DNA from: an uncultured virus (IMG/VR IMGVR_UViG_3300044639_000880)
Taxonomy: Duplodnaviria > Heunggongvirae > Uroviricota > Caudoviricetes
IMG/VR virus record: IMGVR_UViG_3300044639_000880
Location: 1 to 64,000 of that record
DNA: 64,000 nt
Reading direction: 5' to 3' (one strand)
Positions within the stretch are counted from its first letter, which is position 1. The number at the start of each line of letters is the position of its first letter. Of this stretch, positions 11,579 through 47,600 are shown in pieces. Below the pieces are notes generated by a model. The model had not been told where the DNA came from and did no database searches. It saw only the letters and a program-made list of their open reading frames with translations. Made by a program: the position numbers and the translations under genes.

Positions 11579-12077
11579 TTTACAAAATGGGAAGATTATT
11601 CCTACAGAACATTGTTACACTTTAGGATTTCTTAAAGACATTATGGATGCGCATCCTGCACAACATCTAAGCATATACGCGTATCTCTTTTACATGACCT
11701 GTCCTAATCCTGAAATTAATCCATACTTTAATATGCCTATTGATGAGAAGGAGTATATTATCTTGCAAGATATTCGCGCAGAATTTAGTCCTGAGGAAGA
11801 TATGATAATTACAGCATTAGGTAAGTGCACATTGATGTATGAAACCCCTACTGTTAGAGCCTTCAGAGGTATCAGTGCTATGCTAGATAGATTAGCAAGT
11901 TACATGGAGAAGACTCCTGTATCTCATGGACGGGATGGAAACATCAACTCCCTGGTGAGTGCTGCTAAGAACTTTGATGGAATCCGTAACTCATTTAAAG
12001 GAGCTTATAAAGATCTTCAAGAAGAACAACAAACAAGAACTCGCGGTGGTGGAGAACTAGCTTATGATCAGAAATAA
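11562..12077 (+). CDS. Conserved protein upstream of terL, candidate terminase small subunit
   Basis: Likely start MIKLFD at 11562 (preceded by AAACCAACAAA); helical; C-terminal RGG; TAATG coupling to terL. Confidence 0.55.
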   Translation: MIKLFDLQNGKIIPTEHCYTLGFLKDIMDAHPAQHLSIYAYLFYMTCPNPEINPYFNMPIDEKEYIILQDIRAEFSPEEDMIITALGKCTLMYETPTVRAFRGISAMLDRLASYMEKTPVSHGRDGNINSLVSAAKNFDGIRNSFKGAYKDLQEEQQTRTRGGGELAYDQK

Positions 12078-20855: not shown

Positions 20856-21872
20856 ATGAGTATCACAATTGTATCCCTAGCTGAGACAGCTAAATCTGGC
20901 AGTATATCTGTTAAACCGTTCTTTGACCCCAATAAAGCTAATCTAGGCCTAGAGAAATATGGCTTAGCATTATTTGATGGAGTATTTCATGAAGAGCAAC
21001 TTGCTTGTATTGAGCGTAATGGTATCAAGAGATACATTACAGGTCTTAATGAGTTTGCCCCAGAGGTTAAACTTATTGCAGACAAAGAAGTACGCGAAGC
21101 TAAGATCAGAGAGATCCGTACAATAGTAACACAACTTGAAAGAGAACTTGCTACTAATGTGCTAGATCCTGAGGATCCTGATTTTTGGAATAAAGTTCAA
21201 TTACTTCAACCAAACAATCATGAGTTCTGGGAAAGAATCTCAATCCGTTGTGGTAATGAGCCGGTGCATTTAGATCCTGCAAAAGATCCTTATGACTTAA
21301 TTAAGTTATATGCAATTGATGCTGGTGGATTCTCTATTGTATGTAAAAGTTATGATGAGGCCCGCAGTAAAGCTGTTCCACCTAAGTTTTACTTAGACAG
21401 ATTTATAGATACTGTATCTACTAAAACTGAGATCAGCAAAATCCGTAATAAAGCATTATCTGAGCTTATTAAAATGTTTGATAAAAACCAGAATAAGTTG
21501 TTTTATGTATGTAAAGTTGTTGATGGAAATAGTGTTCAATACAAGAAGACTACTCCTAATGATGTTCTATATGACAACATGGATAAATTCATTACAGGAG
21601 AAGGTATTGAGACTAACTTAAGAAGAGCTGCTCAGACATTCTTGGATGCATGCGCGCTAGATATGGAGACACTTAAAATTAAGTCAATTGTAAAAGATGC
21701 AACTTTTTATAAGTTTATCTCTCCTAAAGCTGACGGGTTTATCTACCACACAGACAGTGCTTCAATGTTAGGTAGAAATGTATCTGATTGTATAGAGTAT
21801 TTGAAGAATCCATTAAATGATTCTATCTTACTTGATTTAACTAAGAAAGTAGAAAAGTATTGGAGTGTATAA
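20856..21872 (+). CDS. Conserved crAss-like post-MCP protein
   Basis: Synteny; helical protein with FW...I...N.PV.LDP segment and C-terminal LG.....C.EYLKNP. Confidence 0.65.
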   Translation: MSITIVSLAETAKSGSISVKPFFDPNKANLGLEKYGLALFDGVFHEEQLACIERNGIKRYITGLNEFAPEVKLIADKEVREAKIREIRTIVTQLERELATNVLDPEDPDFWNKVQLLQPNNHEFWERISIRCGNEPVHLDPAKDPYDLIKLYAIDAGGFSIVCKSYDEARSKAVPPKFYLDRFIDTVSTKTEISKIRNKALSELIKMFDKNQNKLFYVCKVVDGNSVQYKKTTPNDVLYDNMDKFITGEGIETNLRRAAQTFLDACALDMETLKIKSIVKDATFYKFISPKADGFIYHTDSASMLGRNVSDCIEYLKNPLNDSILLDLTKKVEKYWSV

Positions 21873-21895: not shown

Positions 21896-22066
21896 ATGAC
21901 TGGACAAATGAAAAACCCAAATGTATGTCCTGTAGTTGTAACAACTCCAGGCGGGCGCGTAGGAGGCACAAATGCTTCTGTAACAGTATTAACTAACCCA
22001 ACCAAGTATACTGGTGGCTTTAATAAAGCTGCTTGTGATGTACCAACTGGTAAATTAAAAAAATAA
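21896..22066 (+). CDS. Small basic repeat protein (56 aa), paralogue of 22390
   Basis: Translated by hand: VVVTTPGGRVGGTN..VTVLTNPTKYTGGFN; A-rich leader. Confidence 0.7.
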   Translation: MTGQMKNPNVCPVVVTTPGGRVGGTNASVTVLTNPTKYTGGFNKAACDVPTGKLKK

Positions 22067-22069
22067 GAC

Positions 22070-22387
22070 ATGGCAAAAAAACTAGAAAAAGCCCAAGCGG
22101 GTAAGATAGTAAAAGCAGTAGCCAAGGGTGCTAAAGGCGCATATAAAAATTATATGAGGAATGTAGACCAGCCTAGAACTAAAGCTTACGTAGCTGCATT
22201 AGGTGTTGGAGCAGGTGCTGGTTATGCTGCACTAACACCAACCATCCGGAAAGTTGAAGCTAGAGAAAAAGCTTTAGTACCAATTAAAGAAAAATATGGA
22301 AACAATGTAGCAGATTCTACAAGAGCTAAGATGCGAAGGATGGACGATAAAAAAACAGGTGGAGCAACTAAATCTAAAAAGAAATAA
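22070..22387 (+). CDS. Tag-flanked Lys-rich mini-protein
   Basis: MAKKLEKAQAGK...KKTGGATKSKKK. Confidence 0.8.
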   Translation: MAKKLEKAQAGKIVKAVAKGAKGAYKNYMRNVDQPRTKAYVAALGVGAGAGYAALTPTIRKVEAREKALVPIKEKYGNNVADSTRAKMRRMDDKKTGGATKSKKK

Positions 22388-22389
22388 TT

Positions 22390-22590
22390 ATGAAAGATAT
22401 CAAAGCTAAAGTGGTTACTAAACCTACAGGTAAAACAGGTGGTACTAATGGTACTGCTAAAGTACAAAAAAGTATTAAAGCTAAACCTTCTGGTAAAGTT
22501 AACACTCCACCAAAAGGTGCAGTTCCTGCTGCTAAGTATGGTACTATGATGAAAAAAGGCGGTATGGTTAAATCTAAAAAATCTTGTTAA
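22390..22590 (+). CDS. Small basic repeat protein with GG motifs
   Basis: VVTKPTGKTGGTN...AKYG.MMKKGGMVKSKK. Confidence 0.75.
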   Translation: MKDIKAKVVTKPTGKTGGTNGTAKVQKSIKAKPSGKVNTPPKGAVPAAKYGTMMKKGGMVKSKKSC

Positions 22591-22591
22591 T

Positions 22592-22843
22592 ATGAAAAAG
22601 TTAGCTAAAAAACAAACAGGTGGATCTAAAGCTACAATCACTAGCACAACAGGTACTGCAACTAAGAAGATTCGTCCAGTAATTGGAAAAGGTCCTACTA
22701 GAGAAAAAAGTATAGCTGATTTACCTCCAGCAAAAAATCCAATGTCTGGTCCATCATCACCAAAACCTTCTAATCTTATACCACGTAAGATGAAGAGTGG
22801 TGGATCAACCGGTGCATTTGATAGATATTCTAAAAAGAAATAG
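22592..22843 (+). CDS. Tag-flanked Lys-rich mini-protein
   Basis: MKKLAKKQTGG...KMKSGG. Confidence 0.75.
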   Translation: MKKLAKKQTGGSKATITSTTGTATKKIRPVIGKGPTREKSIADLPPAKNPMSGPSSPKPSNLIPRKMKSGGSTGAFDRYSKKK

Positions 22844-22845
22844 TA

Positions 22846-23079
22846 ATGGCAAAAAAATTAGCAAAAGCTCAATTTGGTAAAATAATCAAAGCAGCTGTTA
22901 AAACAGTAGCTAAAGAAGCAAAGCCTGTAGTTAAGGCTGTAAAACCTATGCTTGATATTTCAAAAAAAGAAGTAGGTAATGCAGTAGCTTTATCTGAAAG
23001 AGCTAGATTAAAAGCACATCTTGAATCTTTATCTAAGAAAAAAATGGGTGGTGCCACTAAAACTAAAAAAAAGAAATAA
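22846..23079 (+). CDS. Tag-flanked Lys-rich mini-protein
   Basis: MAKKLAKAQFGK...KKMGGATKTKKKK. Confidence 0.8.
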   Translation: MAKKLAKAQFGKIIKAAVKTVAKEAKPVVKAVKPMLDISKKEVGNAVALSERARLKAHLESLSKKKMGGATKTKKKK

Positions 23080-23081
23080 TC

Positions 23082-23408
23082 ATGGCAAAAAAATGTGCAG
23101 CTTGTGAAAAAGCTAAAATGAAAAAAATGCAGTCTGGTGGTTCTATAGAGAGTTTTTTAAAATCAAAACCTTCTAAATCAGATAGTGCTAGAGCTGCTGA
23201 AAGTAAAAAAGCTATTAATGAATATATGAGTAAAAGCTTTAACAAAGATGTTAAAAATAGTCCTATAAGTAATGCAGCTAAAACTAAGACTATGGCTAAA
23301 GGTGGTTCTTTCCCTGATCTTAATAAAGATGGAAAAGTAACTAAAGCTGATATCTTAAAAGGCAGAGGTGTTATTAAAAAAATGGGTGGTCCTACTAAAA
23401 AGAAGTAA
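23082..23408 (+). CDS. Tag-flanked Lys-rich mini-protein with EF-hand/dockerin-like loop
   Basis: KMQSGG...MAKGG-SFPDLNKDGKVTKADIL...KKMGGPTKKK. Confidence 0.8.
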   Translation: MAKKCAACEKAKMKKMQSGGSIESFLKSKPSKSDSARAAESKKAINEYMSKSFNKDVKNSPISNAAKTKTMAKGGSFPDLNKDGKVTKADILKGRGVIKKMGGPTKKK

Positions 23409-23409
23409 T

Positions 23410-23691
23410 ATGAAAAAACTAGCAAAAGCTCAAATGGGCAAGATTGTTAAATCTGTAGGTAATACACTTCTTAAGAAAAGACCTACAAAACAAGTCTTTG
23501 GTGCAGCTGGTGCTATAACTGGTGGTTTAGGAACTGCAGCTGCTATCTCAACATATCAAGCTAAAAAACAATTTGCAGAAAAAGAAAAAAGTCCAGAAGG
23601 TATTGCTCAAAAGAAAAAGTATGAAGATTTAAAAAAACAATATCCAAAGTCTTTTAAAAAAAAGATGGGTGGCTCAATTAAAAAGAAATAG
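23410..23691 (+). CDS. Tag-flanked Lys-rich mini-protein
   Basis: Start corrected to 23410: MKKLAKAQMGK...KKMGGSIKKK. Confidence 0.8.
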   Translation: MKKLAKAQMGKIVKSVGNTLLKKRPTKQVFGAAGAITGGLGTAAAISTYQAKKQFAEKEKSPEGIAQKKKYEDLKKQYPKSFKKKMGGSIKKK

Positions 23692-23692
23692 T

Positions 23693-23983
23693 ATGAAAAA
23701 AACAAGTAAAGCTTTACCTAAAGCACAGTATGGAAAAGTTATAAAAGCTGCTGGTAAAAGAGCTGCAGATGCTATAGTAAGAAAGAAAGAAATGGCTAAT
23801 GATCTTAAAGCAGCAGCTGCACTAGGAGTAGGAGCAGGAGGATGGATGGCTGTAAATGAAGATGTTAAAAAGAAAAAATTAGGACCATACTCTTCAAATA
23901 GCAGTGTTAACAAAACTCAAACAGACTCTCTTAGTAAAGCAAAGAAAAAAGTAGGTGGTGCTATTAAAAGTAAAAAGAAATAG
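23693..23983 (+). CDS. Tag-flanked Lys-rich mini-protein
   Basis: Start corrected to 23693: MKKTSKALPKAQYGK...KKVGGAIKSKKK. Confidence 0.8.
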   Translation: MKKTSKALPKAQYGKVIKAAGKRAADAIVRKKEMANDLKAAAALGVGAGGWMAVNEDVKKKKLGPYSSNSSVNKTQTDSLSKAKKKVGGAIKSKKK

Positions 23984-23985
23984 TA

Positions 23986-24141
23986 ATGGCTGAAAAAAAG
24001 GATAAGAATTGGATACAAAAAGCAGTTAATCCTGCACATAAAGGATACTGCACTCCAATGACTAAAGCTACTTGTACTCCTAAAAGGAAAGCATTAGCTA
24101 TGACTTTTAAGAAAATGGCAGCTGCTAGAAAAAAGAAATAA
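23986..24141 (+). CDS. Small basic protein (51 aa)
   Basis: Translated by hand: MAEKKDKNWIQKAVNPAHKGYCTPMTKATCTPKRKALAMTFKKM... Confidence 0.75.
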   Translation: MAEKKDKNWIQKAVNPAHKGYCTPMTKATCTPKRKALAMTFKKMAAARKKK

Positions 24142-24142
24142 T

Positions 24143-24292
24143 ATGGCAAAGCAGATGATCAAAAGAAAAGATGGTAGTGTATCTCAAAGAGGTCTTTGGG
24201 ATAACATCAGAGCTAACAAAGGTTCTGGTAAAGCACCTACCAAAGAAATGCTTAAACAAGAAAAAAAGATTAAAGCTAAAACTAAGAAATAA
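24143..24292 (+). CDS. Small basic protein (49 aa)
   Basis: Translated by hand: MAKQMIKRKDGSVSQRGLWDNIRANKGSGKAPTKEML...; TAATG coupling to the next gene. Confidence 0.75.
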   Translation: MAKQMIKRKDGSVSQRGLWDNIRANKGSGKAPTKEMLKQEKKIKAKTKK

Positions 24293-24564
24293 TGGCAAAG
24301 ACTGCAGCTTGGACCAGAAAAGAAGGTAAGAATCCTTCTGGAGGATTAAATAAAAAAGGTGTTGCTTCTTATAGAGCAGCTAATCCTGGTAGTAAACTTC
24401 AAACAGCTGTTACTACTAAACCATCTAAACTTGATCCGGATAGCAAAGATGCTAAAAGGAGAAAGTCATTTTGTGCAAGAATGTCTGGTGTTAAAGGACC
24501 TATGAAAGATGAAAAAGGAAGACCTACTAGAAAAGCTCTTTCTTTAAAAAAGTGGAACTGTTAA
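24292..24564 (+). CDS. Conserved small basic phage protein (possibly DUF6321-like)
   Basis: AWTRKEGKNPSGGLN...RRKSFCARMSG...KWNC pattern recalled from aquatic phages. Confidence 0.75.
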   Translation: MAKTAAWTRKEGKNPSGGLNKKGVASYRAANPGSKLQTAVTTKPSKLDPDSKDAKRRKSFCARMSGVKGPMKDEKGRPTRKALSLKKWNC

Positions 24565-24575
24565 AATAATATACT

Positions 24576-25181
24576 ATGAAAAAAACAACTAACTCAAATC
24601 CATTAAAGTACTTTAATGATGAGAAGGCTAAAAAAGTAGCTAAGCTTACTAAGGCTCAAGATGGGATGAACTATACTCGTAAATATGTATCTAATGTATT
24701 TGACAATGACCAATCTTTTTTAAATAGTACTAAAGAGGCACCTAAGAAATTTAATATTGTAAAAAACATTAAAGAAAAAATTAATGAGTATAAAGAAGAT
24801 AAAGCCAATAGAGATGCTTATAAAAATAGACCAAGATTTACAGCTACATCTGTATTGGTTCCAATACCTGAATCCTATACAAATACAAAAGCTGTGTCTG
24901 ATACTTCTTCTACTAAAAAAGTTAATACTACCCCTACTAAAAAAGTAGAAACAAAAGGTCCTAAAGGAGTAATTCCAGGAACTAGTACAAGTAAAAGTAC
25001 TTATACAGATAAAGATAGTAAACCTGTTTATACAGATACTTCTAGACCTAATGAATACTTTACTATGACAAAAACAAAAGCTGGTCAGGATAGTTTAGCT
25101 CCATACAATTCTCAAATGGGATTATATGGTGAAGTAAGAAAAAAATCAGGTGGTCAAACTAAATCTAAAAAGAAGAAATAA
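24576..25181 (+). CDS. Tag-flanked Lys/Thr-rich protein
   Basis: KLTKAQDG...RKKSGGQTKSKKKK. Confidence 0.75.
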   Translation: MKKTTNSNPLKYFNDEKAKKVAKLTKAQDGMNYTRKYVSNVFDNDQSFLNSTKEAPKKFNIVKNIKEKINEYKEDKANRDAYKNRPRFTATSVLVPIPESYTNTKAVSDTSSTKKVNTTPTKKVETKGPKGVIPGTSTSKSTYTDKDSKPVYTDTSRPNEYFTMTKTKAGQDSLAPYNSQMGLYGEVRKKSGGQTKSKKKK

Positions 25182-25366
25182 TGGGAAAATATAAATTACC
25201 AAGCTATCCTAACAGTGAAAACCAGGATGCAAAGAATAACAAGATTATGGAGCAATTCCGTAAGTTTAAAGAACAAGGTAACCGCGTAGAGGCTGTTAGT
25301 GTATTCAACTTAGACAACATGCCTCCAACTGTAGTTCCTGATTTTAAAAAACCTAAGAAAAAATAA
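25181..25366 (+). CDS. Small hypothetical protein
   Basis: TAATG coupling on both sides. Confidence 0.6.
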   Translation: MGKYKLPSYPNSENQDAKNNKIMEQFRKFKEQGNRVEAVSVFNLDNMPPTVVPDFKKPKKK

Positions 25367-26070
25367 TGTTAGCTAGCACTATACTTTTAAAGGTTCAAGA
25401 AAGACTTAATAAGCTTGCAAGTAATGACTATGATAATATTCAGAACTGGCAAATTGTTGAAGCTTTTAATAAGGGTCAAGTAGATTGGTGCCGTAGAAAC
25501 CTTCATGGTTTAAATATTGTTAAAGAAGGTGATGAGCAATCTACTCGTAGAATAGATGACTTGCAAGTACTGCTTGTTAATACTATTTTAAATATGAATA
25601 ACAAACAAACCTATTATGAAAGTGTGACCTTTCCTACTGATTATTTACAGTGGAAAAGAGTATCTGCAGGCGCTACTAGTGAATGTTGTCCAGATCCTAA
25701 ACCTATTGTTATATACTTAGCTGAGGTTGCCAATGTGGATGAGCTTCTTAGAGATTTTAATAAGCGCCCAGACTTTGAGTTTGGTGAAACTTTTGCTACC
25801 TTATCTAACAATAATTTAAAGATCTATACTAATGGTTTATTTAAACCGGTTAATGTAACTTTATATTATTATAGACAACCTGTAAGAATGCAGATTGCTG
25901 GAGTAGAAGATCCTTACACAGGACTTATCCCTACAGTAACAGTTAATCCTGAATTTAAGGATGACTTAGTAGAGGTGTTTGTAGATGAAGCGGTTAAGAT
26001 CCTTGCCGGTGATATTGAGTCTATGACTCAGTACCAAAGAATGAGTCAATCAACAGAAGAAAATAACTAA
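25366..26070 (+). CDS. Putative tail ring / head-tail adaptor protein
   Basis: RLNKL.S....I....I..AFN..Q N-terminus and YYRQP...V...V.IL C-terminus; crAss-like synteny. Confidence 0.7.
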   Translation: MLASTILLKVQERLNKLASNDYDNIQNWQIVEAFNKGQVDWCRRNLHGLNIVKEGDEQSTRRIDDLQVLLVNTILNMNNKQTYYESVTFPTDYLQWKRVSAGATSECCPDPKPIVIYLAEVANVDELLRDFNKRPDFEFGETFATLSNNNLKIYTNGLFKPVNVTLYYYRQPVRMQIAGVEDPYTGLIPTVTVNPEFKDDLVEVFVDEAVKILAGDIESMTQYQRMSQSTEENN

Positions 26071-26072
26071 TC

Positions 26073-26573
26073 ATGGAAGAAACACAATCTAGATTTTTAA
26101 AAAGAACTCCTGAAAAAATACAAGGAATCAGTAGACCAAAACCTGAACCGGTAAAAGCAAATCCTGCACCAAATACTGGAGCAGGTGGAAGTTCTGTGGA
26201 TAATATGGTATCAGCATGTGCCTCAGAACTCATGAATGCTAGAACTAGTTTTCATAAACTTCATTTAAAGATTAAAGGTGATGGTTCTTATGCAGCTCAT
26301 ACTGCTCTAAATGCTTTCTACGATGAACTACCTGATCAAACAGACACTCTTATTGAAGGCTACCAAGGAGCTGCTGAAAAACTATTAAGTTATACAGAAA
26401 CTACTCCTAGAATACTAGATACAGTTTCAGATGCTGTAGCTTATTTAAGAGATTTGTCAGCTATTATCACAAAACTACAAGGAATGCTGCCTTACTCAGA
26501 AATTGTTAACAACTTAGATCTAGTTAAAGACTCTATTAATTCAACTAAATATAAATTACTTTTCTTAAAATAA
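26073..26573 (+). CDS. Ferritin/Dps-like four-helix-bundle protein
   Basis: HKLHL...SYAAHTAL..FYD....D.LIE.YQG ferroxidase-type pattern; C-terminal KYKL. Confidence 0.75.
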   Translation: MEETQSRFLKRTPEKIQGISRPKPEPVKANPAPNTGAGGSSVDNMVSACASELMNARTSFHKLHLKIKGDGSYAAHTALNAFYDELPDQTDTLIEGYQGAAEKLLSYTETTPRILDTVSDAVAYLRDLSAIITKLQGMLPYSEIVNNLDLVKDSINSTKYKLLFLK

Positions 26574-29124: not shown

Positions 29125-32100
29125 ATGGCATGCTATAAACTCTCCTCATGTACAGCAGGTAATACAACAATACTTTGGTCTAATGATCCTGGTTTTGCAG
29201 GATTAGTTGGACAAACAATTCAACTTACACCTTATTCTGGTATATGTCTTACTGTAGAGTTAATAGAAACACCATGTATTTGTCAACCAAATAGTCCTGA
29301 TGTCAATGCAACTCAGGCCTCATCTTGTGAATGCACCAGTCCTAATGATTGTTATAAATTAACAGAGTGTAATGATTCAATACCTCCTATCTATGTAAGT
29401 AACAATCTTAATCCTTATATAGGATTATCTATTGCAGTAGAAGAATATCCAGGTTATTGTTTTAATGTAACTGGTGTTGAGGATCCAGCAGAGTGTGAGG
29501 CTAACTTACCTAATATTCAAGTTACATGTGTTAATCTATGTACTTGTGATCTTTTTTGTTACGAGCTTACTAACTGTTTAGTTGCTGATACAATTATAGT
29601 TCATACATCTTTAACTCTTACTTTAAATACAGTTATTGCAATAACTCCTGCTGTAATTGCGCCTGGTGGAAATAACTGCTGGACAGTAACAGATCTTTAT
29701 GTTCAGCCTTGTGATATTAGTACAGGAGTACTTGTAACCAGTATCATCCCTTACGGAGTAAGTGGTTGCGCTGCTTGTGGAATACCTCTGCCTTGTTATA
29801 CATTAGCTGATTGTTCTGGTAATATATTACCTTTTAATACAAATTCTAACTTGGCTGCCTATATAGGACAAGCTGTTCATTTAACTGAATATGGAGGTTG
29901 TGCAGGTCCTTGCTTTTTAGTAAGTCTTAATGCCGGACCTTGTCCAGTTGTTGAACCAGCAACGGTTACTCTAGGTTGTGTACTTTGTCCACCTTGTAAT
30001 CAAACATGTTATAAATTAATTGATTGTGAAACTAGAATTCAATATGCTATACTATCAAGTCCTACAGCAAACGGAGTTGACTTAAGCTTACTTGTTGGTC
30101 AAAGTATTGGCAAAGTATGTCTTAGTCCAGAACCTGTAGAATGTACTACTGGTTGTTGGGAAGTACAAATTTCAAATACTTGTGGAGGTGCTATATCAGC
30201 TTATGTATATAATATTTATGATGATTGCAATGCTTGTACAAATAGTTGTTATGTTTTTCAAAATTGTCAGACGGGTGCGCTAGGTCCTATAATTAAGTAT
30301 ACAGTTCCTAATCCTAATGGTTTACCTAATCCTAGTACTTTAACAGGAGCAGTAGGTTCTTTATGTTTTACGGCTCCTACTGGATGTCTTACAGGTTGTT
30401 ATCAATTATTACCACAACCAGGTGCTTCTTGTGTAGGTAGTATTGATTGGTCAACGGCTGTAAGTTATACACCATATAATGATTGCTTTAGCTGTTTACC
30501 AAAGTGTTATCTACTTACAGAATGTGCTCCCGCAATTTCAGTACCTATAGTAGTAAATAATGATCTTAGTCTGTATGTAGGACAAGTAGCTAAAATATGT
30601 GATTCATTAGGAGAATGTCATTGTTATAATGTAGAAATTTCACAGAGTTGTAATGGAGCTATCACTATTGATAATGCTAGTGCTAGTTTTACAACTTGTG
30701 AAGAATGTAATTCATGCGAGTGTCCTCCAGGCTATACTAAAGTAGGAGAGTTTTGTCAGAAGATAACAAGTATTCCAGCTGTAGCAAATCCTGTAATATA
30801 TTCAACAGGTCCTGGTAGTTTAAATACTGCCTTCTATGGAATACTAGGAACAAACTTTTATGGTAATATTTCAGCTTTACCTTTTCCATTAACTGCAGTT
30901 ACCGGCCCAGATCGTTTTCAAGATGCTTCTGCTACAAATGTAGTAGCTGTAAATAATATTATTGGTGTATGGGGTCCTGGTGCAGCATCAAGATTAAACT
31001 CTGTTGGTGTATGGACTACAGTTAATCCTAATCCTTTATCACAATGGATTGGTTTTACAGAATGCATTACTATCCCAACTACTGGTATTTATTGTATAGG
31101 TATTGGTGGCGATGATGCTGTAAGAATAAAAATTGATGGTGTATTGGTTGCTATAGCTAACATAGGCTTATTTGATTTTCGATACTGGCATGTATTTGAA
31201 ATCAGTCTTACTGCAGGAACTCACATAATCACCTTAGAAGGTTATAATACCGCAGGTAATACAGCTTTTGCTGCAGAAATATATAATGTAACTTCAGCAA
31301 CTCTTCAAACTTATACTACATCTGTTCAGGTACAGTTAGCTACAATATTTAGTACTTTTCCTAAAAGAATAAGTGGTACTTTTCAAACAGGTGAAACCTC
31401 TGGTTATTCATGTCCTCCCGGTTATGCTCTTAATTCATGCGGTGATAAACTTGTTTGTAGTTTAATTGAAACCATTCCTTATGTAGAATGCGCGGCTACT
31501 TATTTAGTAACAAGTTGTGAACCAGGTGTAGAACCTTTTTTAACTAATACTGACTTATCCGCGTATATAGGATCAACCTATAAAGCTTGTATAACCAATC
31601 CTACATATTCTACAACTTGTTTTATTTTAAAAGATTGTAATAGATTAGTTTCTGATATTGTTACTAATACTAATCTAACAAGCAGCTTATGGCAAATAAT
31701 TAAGGTTGATGGTTATCCAGGATCTTGTTTTATTGTAACAGGTGTTCCTGTAGGAAATCCTTGCATTGCTCCTATCCCTGTAGTAGCTTCATCACCTGTT
31801 GAAGGTTCTTGTAATTGTCCAGGAGCTCAAGTTCCTTGGCCAAATGGTTGTTATTGTGTAACTGTAGAAGAAGTTGCTTCAGAAGTTGCTATAAATTTTT
31901 TAGGAGTTTTTACAACAGAATATGTAGCATGCGAAGATTGTTTACAAGTTTGTTATGTTCTTACTGATTGTAATGATGCTTTAGATCCTGTTACTGTTTG
32001 TAATGATTTAGAAAATTATATAGGACAAGTTATTAAAATAGAAGGTTGTGGTGATATTTGCTGGCAAGTATCTCTTGCATTAAATTGTGATTCTAATTTA

Positions 32101-33414
32101 GCTATACCAGGCAAGATAACGCTTTATGAAGATTGTGAAGCTTGTCTTCCTCCTCTTCCGCCAGTTCCACCACCTTATGATTTACATTTAAGAAAAATTA
32201 AACCAGGTTGGAAGAGTCCTAATAGTTGTTATACTTTAGATTATATAGAAAGAATTAACTGTACTTTTGGACAGCAAATTTATAATGAAATGCTTGTTGC
32301 AAGATATGGTATAACCGTATGTTGTGATGAGGATGTCAATAAGTGGGATATTAAGAAACAAATGTTAGATCTTGATATGCTTAAAGATCCTAATCTTTGT
32401 AAGTCAACTTTATGCTGTTGTCCTGCTCCTTGTTTTATAGAAGCTTTTGTAACAGTGCTTCCTTTCTGTGGAGTTCCTAATATAGTATCTGTAGTTTTTA
32501 ATCTACCTTGTCCTGCGCCTGTATTAATTGATGTGGAAATTGAGGTACTTAGTGAACCTGCTGCATGTCGTTGCTTTTCTGTAGAAGTATTAGATGAACC
32601 GGTTAGTATTAGTTATATTGATTGTTGCTGTGTAGTTCAAACACAAGTAATAGATGCAGTAGGTATTTATCCTATATGTTCTTCTACAGCGCCTGTATCA
32701 ATAAATAATCCATCAAGTATTGTTGTTACTGACAGTGGTTTATGCGGTGTATCTCCTTTATGTACACCTCCACCTTTTCAAGTATGTTCATGTTGGTCAA
32801 TCTATAATCCAACAGTTGCAACTTTAGGATTTAGTATTGCTGCTATTTGCCCAGCTGGTCCAGATCCTGTAGAACAAGCAGGAACAATTGCTCCTCTAGT
32901 AACTATATATAATTGTTCTGTTGCACCTCCTGTAGTTGCTAATGGTTTAATAGTTACAAATACAGGACCTTGTAGTGATTACTGTGGTCCTATTCCTGCT
33001 GTATGTGTATGTTATTTACTACATGCTACTGAATCTTGTGCTTATACTTATCCTGATTGTAATGGTCGGCCAGCAAGTGGAACTTTAGTAATTGGTGATA
33101 ATTATATATGTGCTTATAGTATGCCTCTATTAGATCCAGCTTGTGCAGATTTTGTTACAATAGCTGCTACAGCAAATGTTTGTGTTGATGGTCAATGTGG
33201 ACCACCTTGTATATGTTATGTAGTAACAGTACCGTCTGATGGTAATCAGCATTTTATTACCATAACAGATTGTTTAGGTAATCTTATTATTAATACACCA
33301 TATTTTGGAGGTACATATTATATTTGTTCTCAAAATAGTATTTTAAGTGATCCAAACGTGTCTTATTCACCTACATCATTTGGATGTGGGCCAGGTCAAT
33401 GTGTAGAACCATAG
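29125..33414 (+). CDS. Giant Cys-rich repeat protein with PA14-like domain (putative fibre/hub)
   Basis: About 120 Cys by hand count; repeated CYxLxxC...SN.L..Y.GQ units; PA14-like GIYCIGIGGDDAVRIKIDG...LTAGTH segment. Confidence 0.7.
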   Translation: MACYKLSSCTAGNTTILWSNDPGFAGLVGQTIQLTPYSGICLTVELIETPCICQPNSPDVNATQASSCECTSPNDCYKLTECNDSIPPIYVSNNLNPYIGLSIAVEEYPGYCFNVTGVEDPAECEANLPNIQVTCVNLCTCDLFCYELTNCLVADTIIVHTSLTLTLNTVIAITPAVIAPGGNNCWTVTDLYVQPCDISTGVLVTSIIPYGVSGCAACGIPLPCYTLADCSGNILPFNTNSNLAAYIGQAVHLTEYGGCAGPCFLVSLNAGPCPVVEPATVTLGCVLCPPCNQTCYKLIDCETRIQYAILSSPTANGVDLSLLVGQSIGKVCLSPEPVECTTGCWEVQISNTCGGAISAYVYNIYDDCNACTNSCYVFQNCQTGALGPIIKYTVPNPNGLPNPSTLTGAVGSLCFTAPTGCLTGCYQLLPQPGASCVGSIDWSTAVSYTPYNDCFSCLPKCYLLTECAPAISVPIVVNNDLSLYVGQVAKICDSLGECHCYNVEISQSCNGAITIDNASASFTTCEECNSCECPPGYTKVGEFCQKITSIPAVANPVIYSTGPGSLNTAFYGILGTNFYGNISALPFPLTAVTGPDRFQDASATNVVAVNNIIGVWGPGAASRLNSVGVWTTVNPNPLSQWIGFTECITIPTTGIYCIGIGGDDAVRIKIDGVLVAIANIGLFDFRYWHVFEISLTAGTHIITLEGYNTAGNTAFAAEIYNVTSATLQTYTTSVQVQLATIFSTFPKRISGTFQTGETSGYSCPPGYALNSCGDKLVCSLIETIPYVECAATYLVTSCEPGVEPFLTNTDLSAYIGSTYKACITNPTYSTTCFILKDCNRLVSDIVTNTNLTSSLWQIIKVDGYPGSCFIVTGVPVGNPCIAPIPVVASSPVEGSCNCPGAQVPWPNGCYCVTVEEVASEVAINFLGVFTTEYVACEDCLQVCYVLTDCNDALDPVTVCNDLENYIGQVIKIEGCGDICWQVSLALNCDSNLAIPGKITLYEDCEACLPPLPPVPPPYDLHLRKIKPGWKSPNSCYTLDYIERINCTFGQQIYNEMLVARYGITVCCDEDVNKWDIKKQMLDLDMLKDPNLCKSTLCCCPAPCFIEAFVTVLPFCGVPNIVSVVFNLPCPAPVLIDVEIEVLSEPAACRCFSVEVLDEPVSISYIDCCCVVQTQVIDAVGIYPICSSTAPVSINNPSSIVVTDSGLCGVSPLCTPPPFQVCSCWSIYNPTVATLGFSIAAICPAGPDPVEQAGTIAPLVTIYNCSVAPPVVANGLIVTNTGPCSDYCGPIPAVCVCYLLHATESCAYTYPDCNGRPASGTLVIGDNYICAYSMPLLDPACADFVTIAATANVCVDGQCGPPCICYVVTVPSDGNQHFITITDCLGNLIINTPYFGGTYYICSQNSILSDPNVSYSPTSFGCGPGQCVEP

Positions 33415-38264: not shown

Positions 38265-39293
38265 ATGAGTTATAACTATACCCTTAGATACAGAACATTT
38301 GACCAGCTTCTTGATGCTGCCAGAATAGATCTTACTCAATATGATTTAACTAATTATATTGAACCTCAGCAATTGATTAAAGTTGCTAAAAGAGTTAACT
38401 ATGATCTTGGATTAAGAATCATGGGTACAAAAGAAACTTTATTAGAAGTAAAAAAAGGAAAAGTAAGATTACCCACAGACTTTTATGTATTGAATTATGC
38501 ATTAGTTTGTGATAATGTAACTGTGCACGAGCCCGTAAGCCAAGGCACTTTTATAGAAGAGAGACCTGTAGGAATTCCTACTTATAAATCAATTGGTCCA
38601 GCTGTTATCAACTCTTGTACAGATGGTACTGTTAACTGTCAGACCTGTGGTATTCCTTGTAATACTTGTACTTGTCAACAACTTCCTGCAGCATGTCCTG
38701 CTTTACCGGATGATCAGAGTTATTGTAAAACTCCTAGACTTGAGTTAAACTGTAAAGGTGAGAGCTTTGAATTAGTGCAGATTGTTCATGGTACAACGCG
38801 TACTTATAGAAGGATGTGGCCATTAAGACTTATTACAAATAATGAAACTATTGCTTGTGATTGTCCTAATCTTTATGTAAAGTCTGCAGATCATGCTTGG
38901 ATTCAAGGTGATTTCTTATTTACTAATTTAGAAACAGCTAATATTTATATTAGTTACCAAGGTCAATTAGAAGATGATAATGGAAACTTATTAGTTCCGG
39001 ATCATGATTTACTTAATGAGTATTATGAATATGCTATTAAGCAACGGATTCTAGAGAACTTAATTATGAATGATGAGCCTGTAGGTCAGAAGTTACAATT
39101 AGTTGAAGCAAGATTACGTGTAGCAAAAAGTGCAGCTAATGCTCTTGTGCACACTCCCAATTTTGCAGAGATGCGTGAGATGTGGTGGACTAACAGAAAA
39201 GCTCAGTATGGTAAATACTATGAGGCTTTTAAGTCTTATCCGTGGAACCAACAAAGTAATCCTAATGTTAATGGTCAAATGAATAGATTCTAA
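38265..39293 (+). CDS. Putative tail ring/tubular protein (with Cys-rich insert)
   Basis: V..GKVRLPTDF...ISYQG...DD.G.LLVPD...EYYEYAIK pattern. Confidence 0.65.
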   Translation: MSYNYTLRYRTFDQLLDAARIDLTQYDLTNYIEPQQLIKVAKRVNYDLGLRIMGTKETLLEVKKGKVRLPTDFYVLNYALVCDNVTVHEPVSQGTFIEERPVGIPTYKSIGPAVINSCTDGTVNCQTCGIPCNTCTCQQLPAACPALPDDQSYCKTPRLELNCKGESFELVQIVHGTTRTYRRMWPLRLITNNETIACDCPNLYVKSADHAWIQGDFLFTNLETANIYISYQGQLEDDNGNLLVPDHDLLNEYYEYAIKQRILENLIMNDEPVGQKLQLVEARLRVAKSAANALVHTPNFAEMREMWWTNRKAQYGKYYEAFKSYPWNQQSNPNVNGQMNRF

Positions 39294-42200: not shown

Positions 42201-44689
42201 CTACTGTTTTTAGAACTACTTTAGCTTCTCAACAATATATTGATCCTGAAATACTAGATTATCAACCAGGAGTAGTTGTTAATAATTTATATAGACAAAG
42301 AACTGTTGTCTTAGAGATGGGAAAATCCTTTGGTGTAGATATAGCTCCGCCACCAGTTATTGATAAAACTAGATATGATGCGGCAGGCTTAACTGCTCCT
42401 GGTTTTTGGGATGTTAATATATTTAATAATCCTATATATACTATAGAAGATTTATGTTCAAAAGAAATTACAGGATCTCAAACTAAAAATAATGGTCAAA
42501 TATGTTCATCTTATTATGCTGCTTTAAAAGTAAGAATAGATAATCAATATGGACAACTTAATAGAATAGTACAAGTTCCTATTGATAATTGTTATGTACC
42601 GGTTACAATTAATAAAGTAACTAAACAAATTGTTCCTGGAAAAGGTAACTTTACAAAGTCTTTATTTGGTGGAGATACTTATGTAAATAGATATACAGAA
42701 AAGAATAACTTTCAATTCTTTTATGATTGGTTATATGGAGAACCAGAAGGTGCACAATTTAATTACCAGCAGCACAATATGATTCCATATCCTAAGTATT
42801 GGGCTAATTTTAATAAGTTTCAGACTAGTGATTTTACAACATCTTTTACAGCATTTTTAATTAATCCTGTTAACTGGCCTAATATAGGTAATCCGGGAAC
42901 AATAATTACTCCTAGAGATTATTATGCATTAGATGGTCCTGGTAATTCTGGACCATGGGTTACTAATATTAAAGATAATTTTAGATTTGATAAGAGAGGT
43001 TGGTTCTATTTATTTAATTCTGGTATCAGAGACTTCTTTGTAGAGAGTGAGATAAATCTAGCACAGCGTGAGCGCGGAGAGCTACAAGCTGAAAGATTTT
43101 ACAATCCTTACTTTGGAGGAAACTCAAAAGATCTAACAACAACTGATATTATTAAAGTAGGTAATTATTATAAGTATGATGAGTCATTAAGTATAGCTAA
43201 GTTATTTATTAACTATGCATCTTGGGCATCAACTCAATCACCAAGTTATAATCCTTATATAGCAGAGACTTGTTTTCTGTATCAACCTAAAAGAGTTATC
43301 TATTCTTTACCAGCTCAGTTTGAAGGATTAAGAGATGGATGGAAAATCTTCTTACCTAATAACTATCAAGATTTTCTTAATATTGTTACTTGTATAAAGC
43401 CTGTAAATAAAAGTGGTGCTATGATATTCTTTGATGCAGCTAGTCCTGTTCAATTTCAAGGCACTGATCAATTACAAACAGACTTAGGTACCAAGCTTAC
43501 TATTGGTGATGGTGGATTATTTACTCAACCTCTACAAGCTCTTATTAATGTTGATGCATCTCATGAGTATGCTAGTTGTCAAAATAGATTAAGTGTTATT
43601 AATACACCAGCTGGTTTATTCTGGATGAGTCAAAACCAAGGTAAAGTATTTAGTCTTGCTGATGGTATCAAGGAAGTTTCTAATATTAATCTTAAGTGGT
43701 GGTTTGCAAAATATTTACCTTATAAGATCATAGAAGATTTTCCTGATTTTGCACTAATAGATAATCCTGTAATAGGTGTAGGATGTCAATCTATTTATGA
43801 TAATCAAAATGGCTTAATTTATTTCTGTAAAAAAGATTATATTTTAAGAAAAGATATAACTGAGACTCTTACTTATGTTGGATCAAATAAATTTAAAGTA
43901 GTTGAAACAGGCGCTCCTGTTATACTTGGTAATCCTTTATTCTTTGAAGATGCTAGTTGGACAATAAGTTATGATCCTAAAACTGGAGGTTGGTTAAGTC
44001 AACATGATTGGCACCCAACATTAAACATGCCGGGTAAGAATACTTTCATGACAGTTAATCCTACAGATAAGAAAGGTATATGGATACACAATACAAGATG
44101 TGATCTTTATGCTAATTACTATGGTAAGAATTATCCTTTTGAAGTAGAGTTCATAGTTAACAGTGGACAGCAAATTAATACTCTAAGAAGTATTGAGTAC
44201 ATCATGGAGGTTTATAAGTACGCGGAGAATTGTTATGATAGATTCCATGTATTAGATTTCAACTTTGATGAAGCTGTTATTTACAACACGGAGCAGGTCT
44301 CAGGTTTACTTAAGTTAAATCTTAGCCCACTGAATAATCCATTTGGTTTATTAAACTATCCTGTTGTAGGCCCAACTGATATTCAGATCCTATTTACTAA
44401 GAAAGAGAACAAATACAGATTTAATCAGTTCTGGGATATTACAGATGATAGAGGAGAATTCTTCAATCCAGCTATTCCAGGATTTGCTCAAAGACCTATT
44501 TGGGATACCAAACCAAATGGTTATATTAGAACTCTGAATCCTAGTAACTTAAATTATAGTAAAGATCCTTTTCAAAGAAAAAAATTCAGACACTACACTG
44601 TCTCTGTTTTATTAAGAAGAAAAGTATCCGGAGATAAGAAGATGCTAGTGATGATAGCAAATGTTAAGAACCTTTATTCACCAAGATAA
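39293..44689 (+). CDS. Tail stabilisation / muzzle protein (beta-propeller type)
   Basis: 1798 aa; LNKD....W..ARN..N N-terminus, YWDDGLNP.R, YMRDEVY.F, WTISYDP...W.S.HDW.P motifs; precedes the cargo genes. Confidence 0.78.
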   Translation: MAEQNNSTSSNDSKSFDKSLNKDVNDFHLPTNEWSGARNAINNSITGDLGKLGNEPANLLCLTTDLKYPIIGFIHIIEDKWAVFSTDSVNSEIGLFVESNCGVPDPIKNPAYSVVVNAACLNFKPENLIIGVSRATSTCTYKLYWDDGLNPSRVLEIDVDNPLNNLPFLPPPAPPGTNNPNSPIPWVQNCVDSNGPAPGGCIICTNTPVLDCDKLRLAQFMSPICPRVANGVSGGNLLNGSYLVAMAYAIKGQKISDWYVSNVQSLWTQGNSSGSLDVFIDSIDLDFDEILVTLISVVNQQAVGRDAGIYSTRQTRLSFDIINDAWPAVPVEQLPIMTPIVDKSDAMYAVGDYLIRVGPTNKQDFNYQPLANQIVAKWQSVEYSGDYYAKGGNKTNYMRDEVYAFFIQWIYDTGDKSASYHIPGRPAFPNDITPANVLNAFTGDTLNWQVENTATAIPIAPVPQSDGGVLIGEGYMGYWESTEFYPDKTPQIWNADSQCWSSLTPNLIPNCTEPIPPIPYPGTVAGNASYNLCGTPIRHHKFPEDNLTAETNRYNAGLGTTIRIMGVKFENIRAPRDNSGNLIPGIIGYRILRGTRNGNKTIIAKGMINNMHEYTVPGSTKSHYMPNYPYNDLEADPFLSTTKTFTSSSFNPLGNGGGVQGDTPFPGGFGSLQFSPNYVTFHSPDTNFKDPFLSAKELRIYQNIHGDVTGKFELSEKHPREKLMTDYVFLVSAIGGLGIAALNLNGERTTNTNVPNYQGFSYRELYSKTADYDLDHGGTNTLQPGGIQTYGPAMPNAGTLTQTTGATTNVNENTTGDVTNSAPIKAGFASGPDPDFWDTLLIQGPLITQLGFFNAYAGTVGLSNLIGATTGSGGPADSLKTQAGLMNNDAAIFNAGGSWAYGTTNISYKDGQQNRIPSFLNTVVALPTFLNYFSDGTDSFIRLILAILRYRDYAVRYHSHGFYNKTDLKPTVFRTTLASQQYIDPEILDYQPGVVVNNLYRQRTVVLEMGKSFGVDIAPPPVIDKTRYDAAGLTAPGFWDVNIFNNPIYTIEDLCSKEITGSQTKNNGQICSSYYAALKVRIDNQYGQLNRIVQVPIDNCYVPVTINKVTKQIVPGKGNFTKSLFGGDTYVNRYTEKNNFQFFYDWLYGEPEGAQFNYQQHNMIPYPKYWANFNKFQTSDFTTSFTAFLINPVNWPNIGNPGTIITPRDYYALDGPGNSGPWVTNIKDNFRFDKRGWFYLFNSGIRDFFVESEINLAQRERGELQAERFYNPYFGGNSKDLTTTDIIKVGNYYKYDESLSIAKLFINYASWASTQSPSYNPYIAETCFLYQPKRVIYSLPAQFEGLRDGWKIFLPNNYQDFLNIVTCIKPVNKSGAMIFFDAASPVQFQGTDQLQTDLGTKLTIGDGGLFTQPLQALINVDASHEYASCQNRLSVINTPAGLFWMSQNQGKVFSLADGIKEVSNINLKWWFAKYLPYKIIEDFPDFALIDNPVIGVGCQSIYDNQNGLIYFCKKDYILRKDITETLTYVGSNKFKVVETGAPVILGNPLFFEDASWTISYDPKTGGWLSQHDWHPTLNMPGKNTFMTVNPTDKKGIWIHNTRCDLYANYYGKNYPFEVEFIVNSGQQINTLRSIEYIMEVYKYAENCYDRFHVLDFNFDEAVIYNTEQVSGLLKLNLSPLNNPFGLLNYPVVGPTDIQILFTKKENKYRFNQFWDITDDRGEFFNPAIPGFAQRPIWDTKPNGYIRTLNPSNLNYSKDPFQRKKFRHYTVSVLLRRKVSGDKKMLVMIANVKNLYSPR

Positions 44690-47600
44690 TGAAGCAGAAC
44701 AAAGTACCTAAGAATGAATACACAAACGGGGAACCTTCTCCTTATAGAAAGAACCCTTTCAATAAAGATGTATTCTATGGAGATGATGGTCAATATGCAC
44801 ACCCTGGTCAAGTAACTAGAATACCTGGTGATGCTTTTGGTACTCATATAACAATGAAAGGTATCAATCAACCTTTGTATGCAAGAGATGATCAAGGTAA
44901 TGAACAGATGATGCAACCTGGTGAAGACTATACTTTTCCAGGACAGTATGTTACTGAGTATCCTCAAATACAAACAGCTCAATATGGTGAACAATTTAAT
45001 ACTTATGAAGCAGATCTTATATCTAAAGTATTAATGAATAGAAACAGAGATAAAGACTTTGTTAAAAGAGCTTATGATGTAGGAGCTTATCCTGATTCTA
45101 ATATGTTTACAGGATTAGATACAGAAGATTTTGGAAATAGAATGAGTCATAAAATGTCTTGGGGTGAAGATGATTCTGGACAAGCTTATATGTATCCTGA
45201 TATTTATAATCCTAACAATGAAGCTATAAAAGTTCCTAATCAATATGCAGATTATATATCTTCTGAAGGATATAAAAAAGCTACAGGAATGCCTGTTAAA
45301 AAATATGGTGGTGGACTTTTAAACAAGACTCTCACTTGTCCTAGTTGTGGTTGGTCTTGGAAAGCTGCAGATGGTGGTAAAGATATTGCAACATGTCATA
45401 AATGTGGAGGTACAGCTAAACTAGCTTATGGTGGAATACCTATGGCTCAAGAAGGATTTGAAAATCAAGAAGATCCTATAGCTCATCTTAAGTGGGGTAA
45501 GTATATTGATGATCCTAACAGAAGAAAACAACACATAGTTGATGTTTATCAATATCTTATGGATTCAAGATGGGATCCTAAGAATATTGTATCTTTTATG
45601 AAAAATGTAGGTGGCTATGGTTCTAAAAGCAGAGGGTCTCTTGCTAAGAGTGGAGCTGATTGGGGTTGGGATAATGAAGATATTACCAATGAAGTTTTAG
45701 GAGAAGCTTGGGATGACTATTACAACAAAGTAAGAAAGATTAAAAGCAAGCAAGCTTATGGCGGAAATCCTTCTCTACCTAACATAGAAAGTCATTATCA
45801 AAAAGGGGGCACTAAAATTTATACAGATAAAGCATTATTTGATAAAGCATACAAAGCTGAAACAGATAGTTTAAATCTTTATAATTTATCTAATCAATTA
45901 GTAAGAGGTAACTATGGATTTTCAGATAATTATGAATTTCCAGCAAATCCTAAATATTGGGAAGATTATAAAATTAAGTATAATCCTTCTGGTTTTACAA
46001 AAGACATTAATAATAATAAAATACCAATAGGTAGTAATAATACTAGAAAAGAAGTAGAAGCAAGTCTTAAAAGAAAAATTAAACCTCTTGGTTATACTTA
46101 TTCTGATTTTGCGGTACCGGTATATAAAAAACCAGTAATACATAATGTATATCAAGAACCTGTACCAGAAGCTGTCAAAGAACAACCTAAGAAAACAGAA
46201 GCTTCTAAGAAAGATTATCATCACAGACAAGTTGATTTCAGTAGTCCTTATGGTGCAGTGATGAAGTACTATGATGAGGCAGGAAAAGTAATAAGAGAAG
46301 AACCTTACAAAAAACCTTTTGGTGGTATACATAGTAAGACTCATACTCACATGCAAGAAGGTGGATGGTTAGATGACCTAGACAAATATCAAGGAGGCGG
46401 CTGGGATGAAAACTTTCAAAGACCTGGACCAGTTGCTGAAAACTCTATACCTGTTGCTAGCCCATCTTTTAATCCTAAAATATCACAAGAGTTTATACAG
46501 CAAAATGTTACTCCTTATTCTTATCAACTACCTCCTTTAAGAACTTTTAAAGATTTTAAAGGAAAAAGATCTAGTCCTGCTGTAGATTATAAGGATTACC
46601 TGGATTATAAATGGCATAGTGATAGAAATGATTTAGAATCAGCCGAAGATCTATATCAAAGGAGAGGAGAATGGGAGAATGAGATATTAGGATCAGAATT
46701 CTTAAAAGACCCTGAAATAAAAGCTTTTACAAAACTAGATAGGCTAGATGATGTTTATTATGATAAAAGTAAAGAAAACCAATATTATATTCCAAGTGGC
46801 AAAAAAATAAAACTTACACAAGGCAGATATAATCTTGGTAAGATTGATACAGGTCTTATAGATGAGGTTGTAAAAAAAGCTAAACAATACGGTGTTGATC
46901 CTTTAGATATATTATCAATTGCTGGTAGAGAATCTACTTTTGGACAACCTTATGGTGACCCAAGTAGTGTGAGACGAGAGAATGATTTAACAGAAGTATT
47001 TAGTGCCTGGGCAAATTCTGAGGCAAATGATGGTAATTTTTATAACTACTTTGGAAAAAAGAAACATCCAGGACTAAAGTTGGTAAAAAATAAAAGTGGA
47101 TGGAACTACCGTCCTGAAGATGAAAGCAAAAAAACTCAAATATTTACTCAAGAGGATGTAGATGAGTATTTAAAGTACAGACAAGAACAAGAAAAAATAA
47201 AATCTAAAGATAATGCTTTAGATTTTGTAGCAAAGAAGATAAAGAACAAGGAGCTTCATAAGTATAATCCTGGAGATCCTGATTATCAAAATAAACTTGC
47301 TAATGAGAAAAAACTTTTAGCTCAAGAAAAAGAGTTGATGAAATATCTTAAAAGTAACAAAGAAGATCAATTAACAACTAAACAATATGGTGGCTGGCTA
47401 GATGAACTAGATGAAGAATACAGAAGAGGTGGTATGGTTAATCCTCTAATGAAATCTAGAAGTAAGAGATCAGGAACATCTAAGAATATCCAGTCTTCTA
47501 TTAATAAGCTCTTCTTAAGAAACCGTGATATATTTGGACCAGGTGGTAAGAATATTTATGATCCAAAATCTAAGTATCAAGATGGTGGAGATCTTCCTAA

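Follow-up and report, generated by a model that had tools for sequence, protein, structure and literature searches.

Crassviruses are the commonest gut phages and are abundant in waters. Cleavage in phage T4 prefers a hydrophobic residue two places before Glu, and adenovirus protease and African swine fever virus mature core proteins at Gly-Gly, with the information on the N-terminal side. T4-type head proteases cleave after Glu and trim away targeting propeptides, as passages of two studies describe (PMC5694885, PMC3012670); zincin-like MPTase peptidases carrying an HExxH motif have been proposed to cut phage polyvalent proteins into units (passages of PMC5512222); and gp45 (C1) of Bacteroides phage crAss001 is a proven cargo protein (passages of PMC10172136; Pfam PF25725). 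Here we describe an array of small genes in a 64,000-nucleotide stretch of an uncultured virus (positions 1 to 64,000 of IMG/VR record IMGVR_UViG_3300044639_000880; the window), many of whose products carry a short Gly-ending peptide (the tag) at both ends. The window corresponds to the structural half of a Crassvirales phage, with every gene on the plus strand, and we suggest that the tag may be a cleaved packaging signal on internal head proteins.

The array spans positions 21896-25366 and consists of 13 small basic open reading frames (ORFs) of 49-201 residues, with net charges of +6 to +23. Seven are tagged at both ends: 22070-22387 (105 residues, KAQAG and KKTGG, net charge +19, with an amphipathic segment and a Gly/Ala hydrophobic stretch), 22592-22843 (83 residues, KQTGG and MKSGG), 22846-23079 (77 residues, KAQFG and KKMGG), 23082-23408 (108 residues, MQSGG, MAKGG and KKMGG), 23410-23691 (93 residues, KAQMG and KKMGG, Gly/Ala hydrophobic stretch), 23693-23983 (96 residues, KAQYG and KKVGG, Gly/Ala hydrophobic stretch) and 24576-25181 (201 residues, KAQDG at residues 26-30 and KKSGG). 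One has the C-terminal tag only (22390-22590, 66 residues, MKKGG). The five with neither tag are members of widespread families: 21896-22066 (56 residues with internal repeats, family in 12 loci), 23986-24141 (51 residues, 16 loci), 24143-24292 (49 residues, 11 loci), 25181-25366 (61 residues, 6 loci) and 24292-24564 (90 residues), which is DUF6321 (PF19846; 87 bits against the Pfam curated cut-off of 28.5). The initial annotation had claimed at least seven tightly packed genes with constant end tags; all seven that it listed start where it placed them and bear the tags it named, and neighbouring genes are separated by 1-3 bases or overlap by one base, with a single gap of 11. Its start at 21896 stands, but the array reaches 25366 and six of the 13 ORFs are not doubly tagged. 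The gene at 23082, described as one core between two tags, does have those tags but is in fact two modules with three tags. The claim of unrelated cores of ~50-160 residues holds in part: the doubly tagged cores measure 53-158 residues and show no mutual BLAST match at E<1e-4 once the tags are masked, but four continue the N-terminal tag alike (G-K-[IV]-[IV]-K) and two have a common Gly/Ala stretch (repeat D17). Family, atlas and structure searches with the tagged cores gave nothing above cut-off, matches to Dockerin and T7 assembly families lying below their curated scores.

The tag takes the form K-A-Q-x-G or hydrophobic/K-[QAK]-x-G-G. A pattern built from the array finds 18 matches among the 13 ORFs where shuffles give 1.07, a count that is circular because the pattern came from those same ORFs. 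A census of 165 non-redundant ORFs from the corresponding island in 33 loci found both tags in 30 (seven of them the window's), against 2.0 in shuffles, and the C-terminal tag only in 29, against 10.0; the N-terminal tag on its own is not enriched (17, against 19.9). The observation is confirmed as real and non-random.

The tag also recurs in large proteins encoded after the muzzle-like gene. Three cargo-like genes (44689-49956, 1755 residues; 49975-52794, 939 residues; 52799-54919, 706 residues) sit between the muzzle and the RNA-polymerase-associated genes, as crassvirus cargo genes do. Each of the first two polyproteins carries nine array-type tags (0.7 and 0.56 expected, respectively), and the first has 18 with a wider pattern; the third protein has few. 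Among the 33 non-array proteins the array-derived pattern has zero matches in 27, and the remaining matches are one each in the proteins at 38265, 52799 and 65121 and two in 17165. The scaffold-like 17165 was considered as a tag carrier and rejected as chance, its two matches not being conserved in relatives. Separately, the single match in ring protein 1 (38265-39293), a K-A-Q-Y-G near the C-terminus, recurs in the L086 homologue. Proteins after the muzzle gene are tag-enriched in relatives and in four of four intact island-less records (record G005, too fragmentary in the cargo region, is left out of this count). Counting back from the first Gly, pooled tag contexts favour Q/A/K at the second place and M/F/Y/H/K at the third; acidic cargo and basic island contexts have these preferences in common, and control proteins lack them. 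Cargo contains 46 copies of the motif A-Q-x-G (12.3 expected), islands contain 15 (3.2) and controls one (3.1). Across 52 cargo proteins, 17 of the 37 xAQxG tags come no more than eight residues after a GG (background 8%), and such tandem tags look as if the end of one mini-gene had been joined to the start of the next. About half of the cargo proteins have tags close to their ends (24 and 27 of 52), and among 148 cases of homology blocks shared between cargo proteins, 52 end close to a tag (random mean 30.2, highest value 48 in 2000). As the same tag fills the large cargo-like proteins, we suggest that it is a phage-wide code of which the mini-genes are the free-standing form. The possibility that the tagged cores themselves are fragments of cargo proteins was set aside, a single weak case having come up (L004:10070, E about 1e-3). 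The 44689 polyprotein also contains a small CxxC...CxxC-GG module (residues about 213-246; 45300-45430) whose second CxxC runs into the tag glycines, likewise in an island gene of locus L023.

Array modules occur as free genes and also within longer proteins. Among 120 longer homologues of the 24143 family, 67 begin with the module itself and 11 were set aside as wrong starts because of an in-frame Met at the junction; in all 42 true upstream fusions a tag Gly lies 1-3 residues before the module, at the start of the free gene. Downstream, a tag lies within 16 residues in 65 of 69 fusions. The family is the first module of a 1238-residue cargo-like protein in record G004, with the tag directly after it (independent E value 6e-25), and DUF5872 is the opening module of a cargo-like protein in locus L094. 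For DUF6321, the 120 best long homologues divide by junction: a Gly tag precedes the module in 80 (exactly 3 residues to the anchor in 78), hydrophobic-x-Glu in 33 (21 at 3 residues, 8 at 2 and 4 at 4) and another junction in 3, while 4 could not be anchored. Partner clusters comprise 11 of the Gly class and 8 of the Glu class, none mixed. In five of five named T4-like cyanophages DUF6321 follows an acidic x-x-Glu junction, in four of them inside a longer polyprotein, and in two pelagiphage/methylophage records it is a free gene. The DUF6321 polyprotein cluster T4-GC119 is listed as virion-detected in a cyanophage, with 13 counts in the first phage column (supplement of PMC3037559), which we read, going by the legend, as S-SM1. 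In the tagged fusions the last Gly of the tag takes the place of the free gene's start. They support the proposal that the tag marks module ends and joints and occupies the same position as a T4-type protease site before the same module. The Gly tag thus takes the place of a cut site of a known kind, in front of a module that elsewhere is carried in virions, and this positional argument is the main one for cleavage after Gly. In P0071, P0077 and P0081, DUF6321 and other modules are connected by a third type of junction, K-x-A, which is perhaps the processing site of another phage group.

Virion proteins of cultured relatives carry the same features. The crAss001 gp45 has a basic leader ending in Gly-Gly, a terminal tag followed by a basic tail, and internal [AK]-x-G-G motifs; phi4:1 gp40 and gp41, annotated as proteins that mass spectrometry found in the virion, also carry tag motifs. 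In profile comparison a domain of 52799 matches phi4:1 gp40 (E 2e-4) and, weakly, gp45 residues 424-555 (E 0.026). An island family of relatives matches the start of a G004 protein (E 1.8e-5), which in turn matches gp45 residues 375-425 (E 8.5e-5), both values having been computed in a small set of 20 proteins. The view that relatives of the array modules are parts of virion-detected proteins is supported by these sequence links and by the listing of T4-GC119. The portal-binding domain PF25725 gave no Pfam match in the window's cargo-like proteins, a Protein Data Bank (PDB) sequence search with 52799 found no match, and profile searches of the cargo-like, AUX-like and scaffold-like proteins against crAss001 gave no sequence links. 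Our re-analysis of 13 matrix-assisted laser desorption/ionisation (MALDI) peak lists from crAss001 virion bands (PMC6235969 supplement; contaminant masses removed) identified the portal (11 matches, 1.7 expected); gp45 was not above chance in any band, and the motif-free gp46 was likewise not found. The four gp45 peptides given in passages of PMC10172136 are tryptic, and none spans a motif.

The array system most likely works like the T4 internal-protein system, yet is not a member of it. Like the T4 internal proteins, whose capsid-targeting sequence is cut by the prohead protease gp21, the array products are small, diverse and basic, have only a short terminal peptide in common and come from a variable locus, and in T4-like cyanophages DUF6321 comes after a Glu-ending site whose offset is that of the Gly tag here. 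Unlike in T4, the tag ends in Gly rather than Glu, stands at both ends and inside polyproteins, has no gp21-like protease beside it that we could find, and belongs to a phage with a podovirus-type Crassvirales head. With crAss001 gp45 and phi4:1 gp40/gp41 the system has in common the motif, the basic leader and basic tail, the small modules and the gene position after the muzzle, but those phages lack a mini-gene island and the sequence similarity to the window's proteins is weak. Polyvalent proteins are likewise multi-module virion proteins, and HExxH occurs here in 44689 and in a gp47-like protein; most modules here, however, are tiny and basic, the modules are found as free genes too, and the passages of PMC5512222 contain neither a junction motif nor a crAss-like example. 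The likeness to adenovirus and African swine fever virus is an analogy only: these are eukaryotic viruses with a cysteine protease, of which none was found here, and in their sites the hydrophobic residue lies one position closer to the glycines. Searches of the literature, mostly without subscription papers, turned up no account of the motif, of the island or of a maturation protease in Crassvirales. The window contributes the free-standing form at its extreme, with seven genes, the range of 0-13 genes across relatives, the persistence of the tag in island-less phages and the second module confirming the fusion register.

We suggest that the small basic array proteins are loaded into the prohead as internal proteins, and that the Gly-ending peptide is a phage-wide signal common to the mini-proteins and the large cargo polyproteins. 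A maturation protease would cut the tag after a Gly, either the first or the second, removing a basic leader, ~10 residues long but 30 in the longest gene, and 5-12 residues of basic tail, which would free a basic core of 53-158 residues; from the polyproteins the same kind of module would be released one by one. The tag probably also addresses the protein to the assembling head, like the T4 capsid-targeting sequence. The cores may neutralise the charge of the DNA, and some could insert into membranes during ejection. We consider it likely that the array products are packaged internal head proteins, and we put the probability that the tag is a cut maturation and packaging signal upon them at about one half. 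What we observe are the tags and where they lie, their presence in cargo proteins as well, modules fused through them and the changing content of the island; expression, packaging, cleavage, the identity of the protease and the function of the cores are what we infer.

The best candidate for the protease would be an HExxH zincin-like domain in a large gp47-like protein just past the window. A 4307-residue protein (L116:5066-17989 in record G006; G000 from 65121 onward) has HExxH near its N-terminus and a C-terminal 2-oxoglutarate-Fe(II) oxygenase domain (E 2e-7). The motif is found in 44689 (at residue 1127, with a weak Pfam hint of a zinc peptidase, E 0.27), in the matching protein of four of the 12 loci L085-L096, in phi4:1 gp41 and in the gp47-like protein of both the window phage and crAss001. 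A stand-alone 119-residue HExxH protein lies between the ring and muzzle genes of two island-less phages (L110:11838-12197, L112:2268-2627) and has no Pfam match. Pfam and PHROGs scans of 38 window proteins and 10 further stretches gave no match for an adenain/Ulp1-type cysteine protease. The gene immediately upstream of the array, 20856, was rejected as a protease: its model (predicted local distance difference test score 86) has no Foldseek match at E<=0.001 and no protease fold was seen in it, although its N-terminal half was barely tested, and its best VIA structural match is a RecA C-terminal domain (Z 9.9, 62 residues, root-mean-square deviation 1.8).

A number of observations weigh against the proposal that a cleaved tag directs these proteins into the head. 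No protease family, including the gp21 type, was matched in those same Pfam and PHROGs scans, the HExxH module of 44689 is present in only some relatives, and nothing in this analysis ties the HExxH proteins to the tag. The mini-genes are dispensable, the island being empty in 13 of 46 intervals and the matching position free of genes in crAss001, phi4:1 and Lbo-JY46; 89 of the 165 island ORFs are untagged. The residues that follow the tag are common to all 80 Gly-class DUF6321 fusions, which may therefore share one junction with swapped partners and not represent 11 independent events, and the crAss-like nature of their source contigs was checked for locus L028 only. The window's cargo-like proteins are weakly homologous to gp45. 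In crAss001 the tag-free cargo proteins gp46, gp47, gp49 and gp50 (C2-like, RNA-polymerase-associated) are packaged, according to passages of the published work, and the tag is thus not the sole route into the head. Finally, the published crAss001 model opens gp45 residues 425-552 with A-F-G-G and continues unbroken, and the authors, in passages of PMC10172136, interpret gp45 as a single stretched chain. The continuity of the model means that in the modelled particles this site is uncut at the glycines, or is cut before the Ala, or is a docking peptide; the modelled motif has an off-consensus Asn before its Ala. Passages of PMC10172136 and its peer-review file mention no motif role, cleavage or protease.

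These last structural data would suit another function, in which the tag is an uncut handle that docks on the portal, the scaffold or other cargo, loading or ordering head proteins, with two tags providing avidity. The ordered part of gp45 contacts the wing loops of the portal (passages of PMC10172136) and begins exactly at the motif A425-F-G-G, and the placing of tags at both termini of the mini-proteins, and close to those of roughly half of the cargo proteins, would fit such a handle. A handle leaves unexplained why the start of the free gene gives way, at a fixed offset, to the last Gly of the tag and why a Glu-ending site is swapped in for it in T4-like phages; the packaging of untagged cargo in crAss001 also tells against it. 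We regard docking without cleavage as unlikely.

If the tag is instead a cut site, the published picture of gp45 as one stretched chain changes, and its head and tail pieces could be separate chains; if the tag serves as an address, it would be to crassviruses what the targeting sequence is to T4, and would offer a means of loading proteins into them. Either bears on how crassviruses select and prepare megadaltons of injected protein. The tag is short and transferable and can be tested in cultured crAss001 and phi4:1, partly with existing mass-spectrometry data. It would also give many small Lys-rich hypothetical genes (DUF6321, DUF5872 and kin) a common reading as internal head modules that adopt the junction type of their phage.

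The island site is hypervariable. The upstream anchor located 80 loci; where both anchors were present, 45 distinct intervals were obtained in addition to the window's, with 0 to 11 ORFs each (0-13 over all 46 intervals); array content among relatives is therefore not invariant. The window has the most doubly tagged genes (seven; relatives have 0-3), and all seven are singletons in the 165-ORF set, while the untagged ones belong to families of 6-16 loci. One relative, L004, has 8 ORFs in 1950 bases against the window's 13 in 3497; its upstream anchor protein is 98.5% identical and its downstream anchor 78%, which suggests a crossover within the island. In L004 and L078 the gene at 23082 lacks about 55 codons between its first two tags. 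The interval looks like a general insertion hot spot. Endonuclease VII-type genes occur in it (L011:12506-13012, PF02945 confirmed; L018, L055, L063 and L071 by likeness), as does an LCIB/C-type beta carbonic anhydrase gene (L057:11982-12959, PF18599, E 1e-34; L055:12453-13427), a possible auxiliary metabolic gene.

In another reading the tag is only a flexible linker and by-product of duplication, Lys/Gly low-complexity ends recombining, spawning near-neutral short ORFs and fusing modules. The indel (insertion or deletion) exactly between two tags, in 23082, fits this, as do the weak direct DNA repeats (58-62 nucleotides, 61-77% identity) that span the gene joints, the contrast between singleton tagged cores and conserved untagged genes, and the gathering of endonuclease and metabolic genes at the site. 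A by-product would not be expected to show position-specific preferences before its glycines that cargo and islands share and controls lack, nor to be retained in distant phages, and the seven homologues found for 22846 retain the frame and both tags at 56-97% identity, two of them being lengthened by another tagged module. The codons of the tags argue against it as well: they vary synonymously and follow genome usage (the first Gly codon is GGT in 13 of 16 array tags, 15 of 19 cargo tags and 35 of 50 control Gly-Gly pairs), and the conservation thus lies in the protein. We find a linker origin quite improbable. The same codon data, with the lack of notable inverted repeats, speak against a DNA-level recombination site. 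The suggestion that the conserved ends serve as recombination handles is borne out to the extent of this one indel, but the codons leave no special DNA site; together with the repeats at gene joints, such indels indicate that the tags can act as microhomology. Promoter-like sites (19, 20.5 expected) and terminator-like sites (6, 3.2 expected) are at or near chance.

A broader scheme may be offered tentatively, and we hold it to be somewhat less than an even bet: Crassvirales would possess a so far unrecognised maturation protease specific for Gly, together with a peptide code of two ends, and C1 and its relatives would be cut by the protease into modules; genes that acquire the tag would become injectable cargo, and the island would be a workshop for new cargo. 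A role for the mini-proteins in the infected cell, as nucleic-acid binders or lysis-aiding amphipathic peptides whose tag has a host-side partner, might be read from the net charge of the tagged genes (+16 to +23) and from the basic amphipathic segment (moment about 0.6) in three of them and the Gly/Ala hydrophobic stretch in three, but is very improbable given that the genes are tightly coupled within the head-tail operon, far from lysis-like genes, that the tag is common to proven virion cargo and that relatives of the modules are parts of virion-detected proteins.

The setting of the array is that of a crassvirus head-tail operon. TerL, portal, crass-type major capsid protein and ring proteins follow in conserved order (PF23898, PF25702, PF24228, phrog_6681 and phrog_6547; Pfam/PHROGs), with the terminase at 12077, the portal at 14288, the acidic scaffold-like gene at 17165, the major capsid protein at 18464 (PF23898), the ring proteins at 37589 and 38265 and the muzzle-like gene at 39293, large proteins following from 44689 on. 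The nearest named capsid proteins are 22-28% identical (Lbo-JY46, csAssE-Sib, phi4:1 and phi17:2), phi17:2 belonging to the epsilon group (passages of PMC7886860). The best named match, Leptolyngbya phage Lbo-JY46 (PP438436.1), has a crAss-like gene order, and its record gives a cyanobacterial host. The source record is 72.8 kb long, and the 122-kb record G006 has identical anchor and ring proteins. The upstream anchor (20856-21872, 338 residues), with its C-terminal RecA-CTD-like domain, is the positional equivalent of crAss001 gp33, an equivalence of position and fold, there being no sequence match between the two. The downstream anchor (25366-26070, 234 residues), in ring-protein position, is a homologue of phi4:1 gp62, which is a virion protein by its mass-spectrometry annotation. 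A Dps/ferritin-like DUF5856 gene (26073-26573) lies between this ring-position gene and the AUX-position gene, and further on (29125-33414) a Cys-rich 1429-residue protein and its neighbours, all without a family match, are probably fibres.

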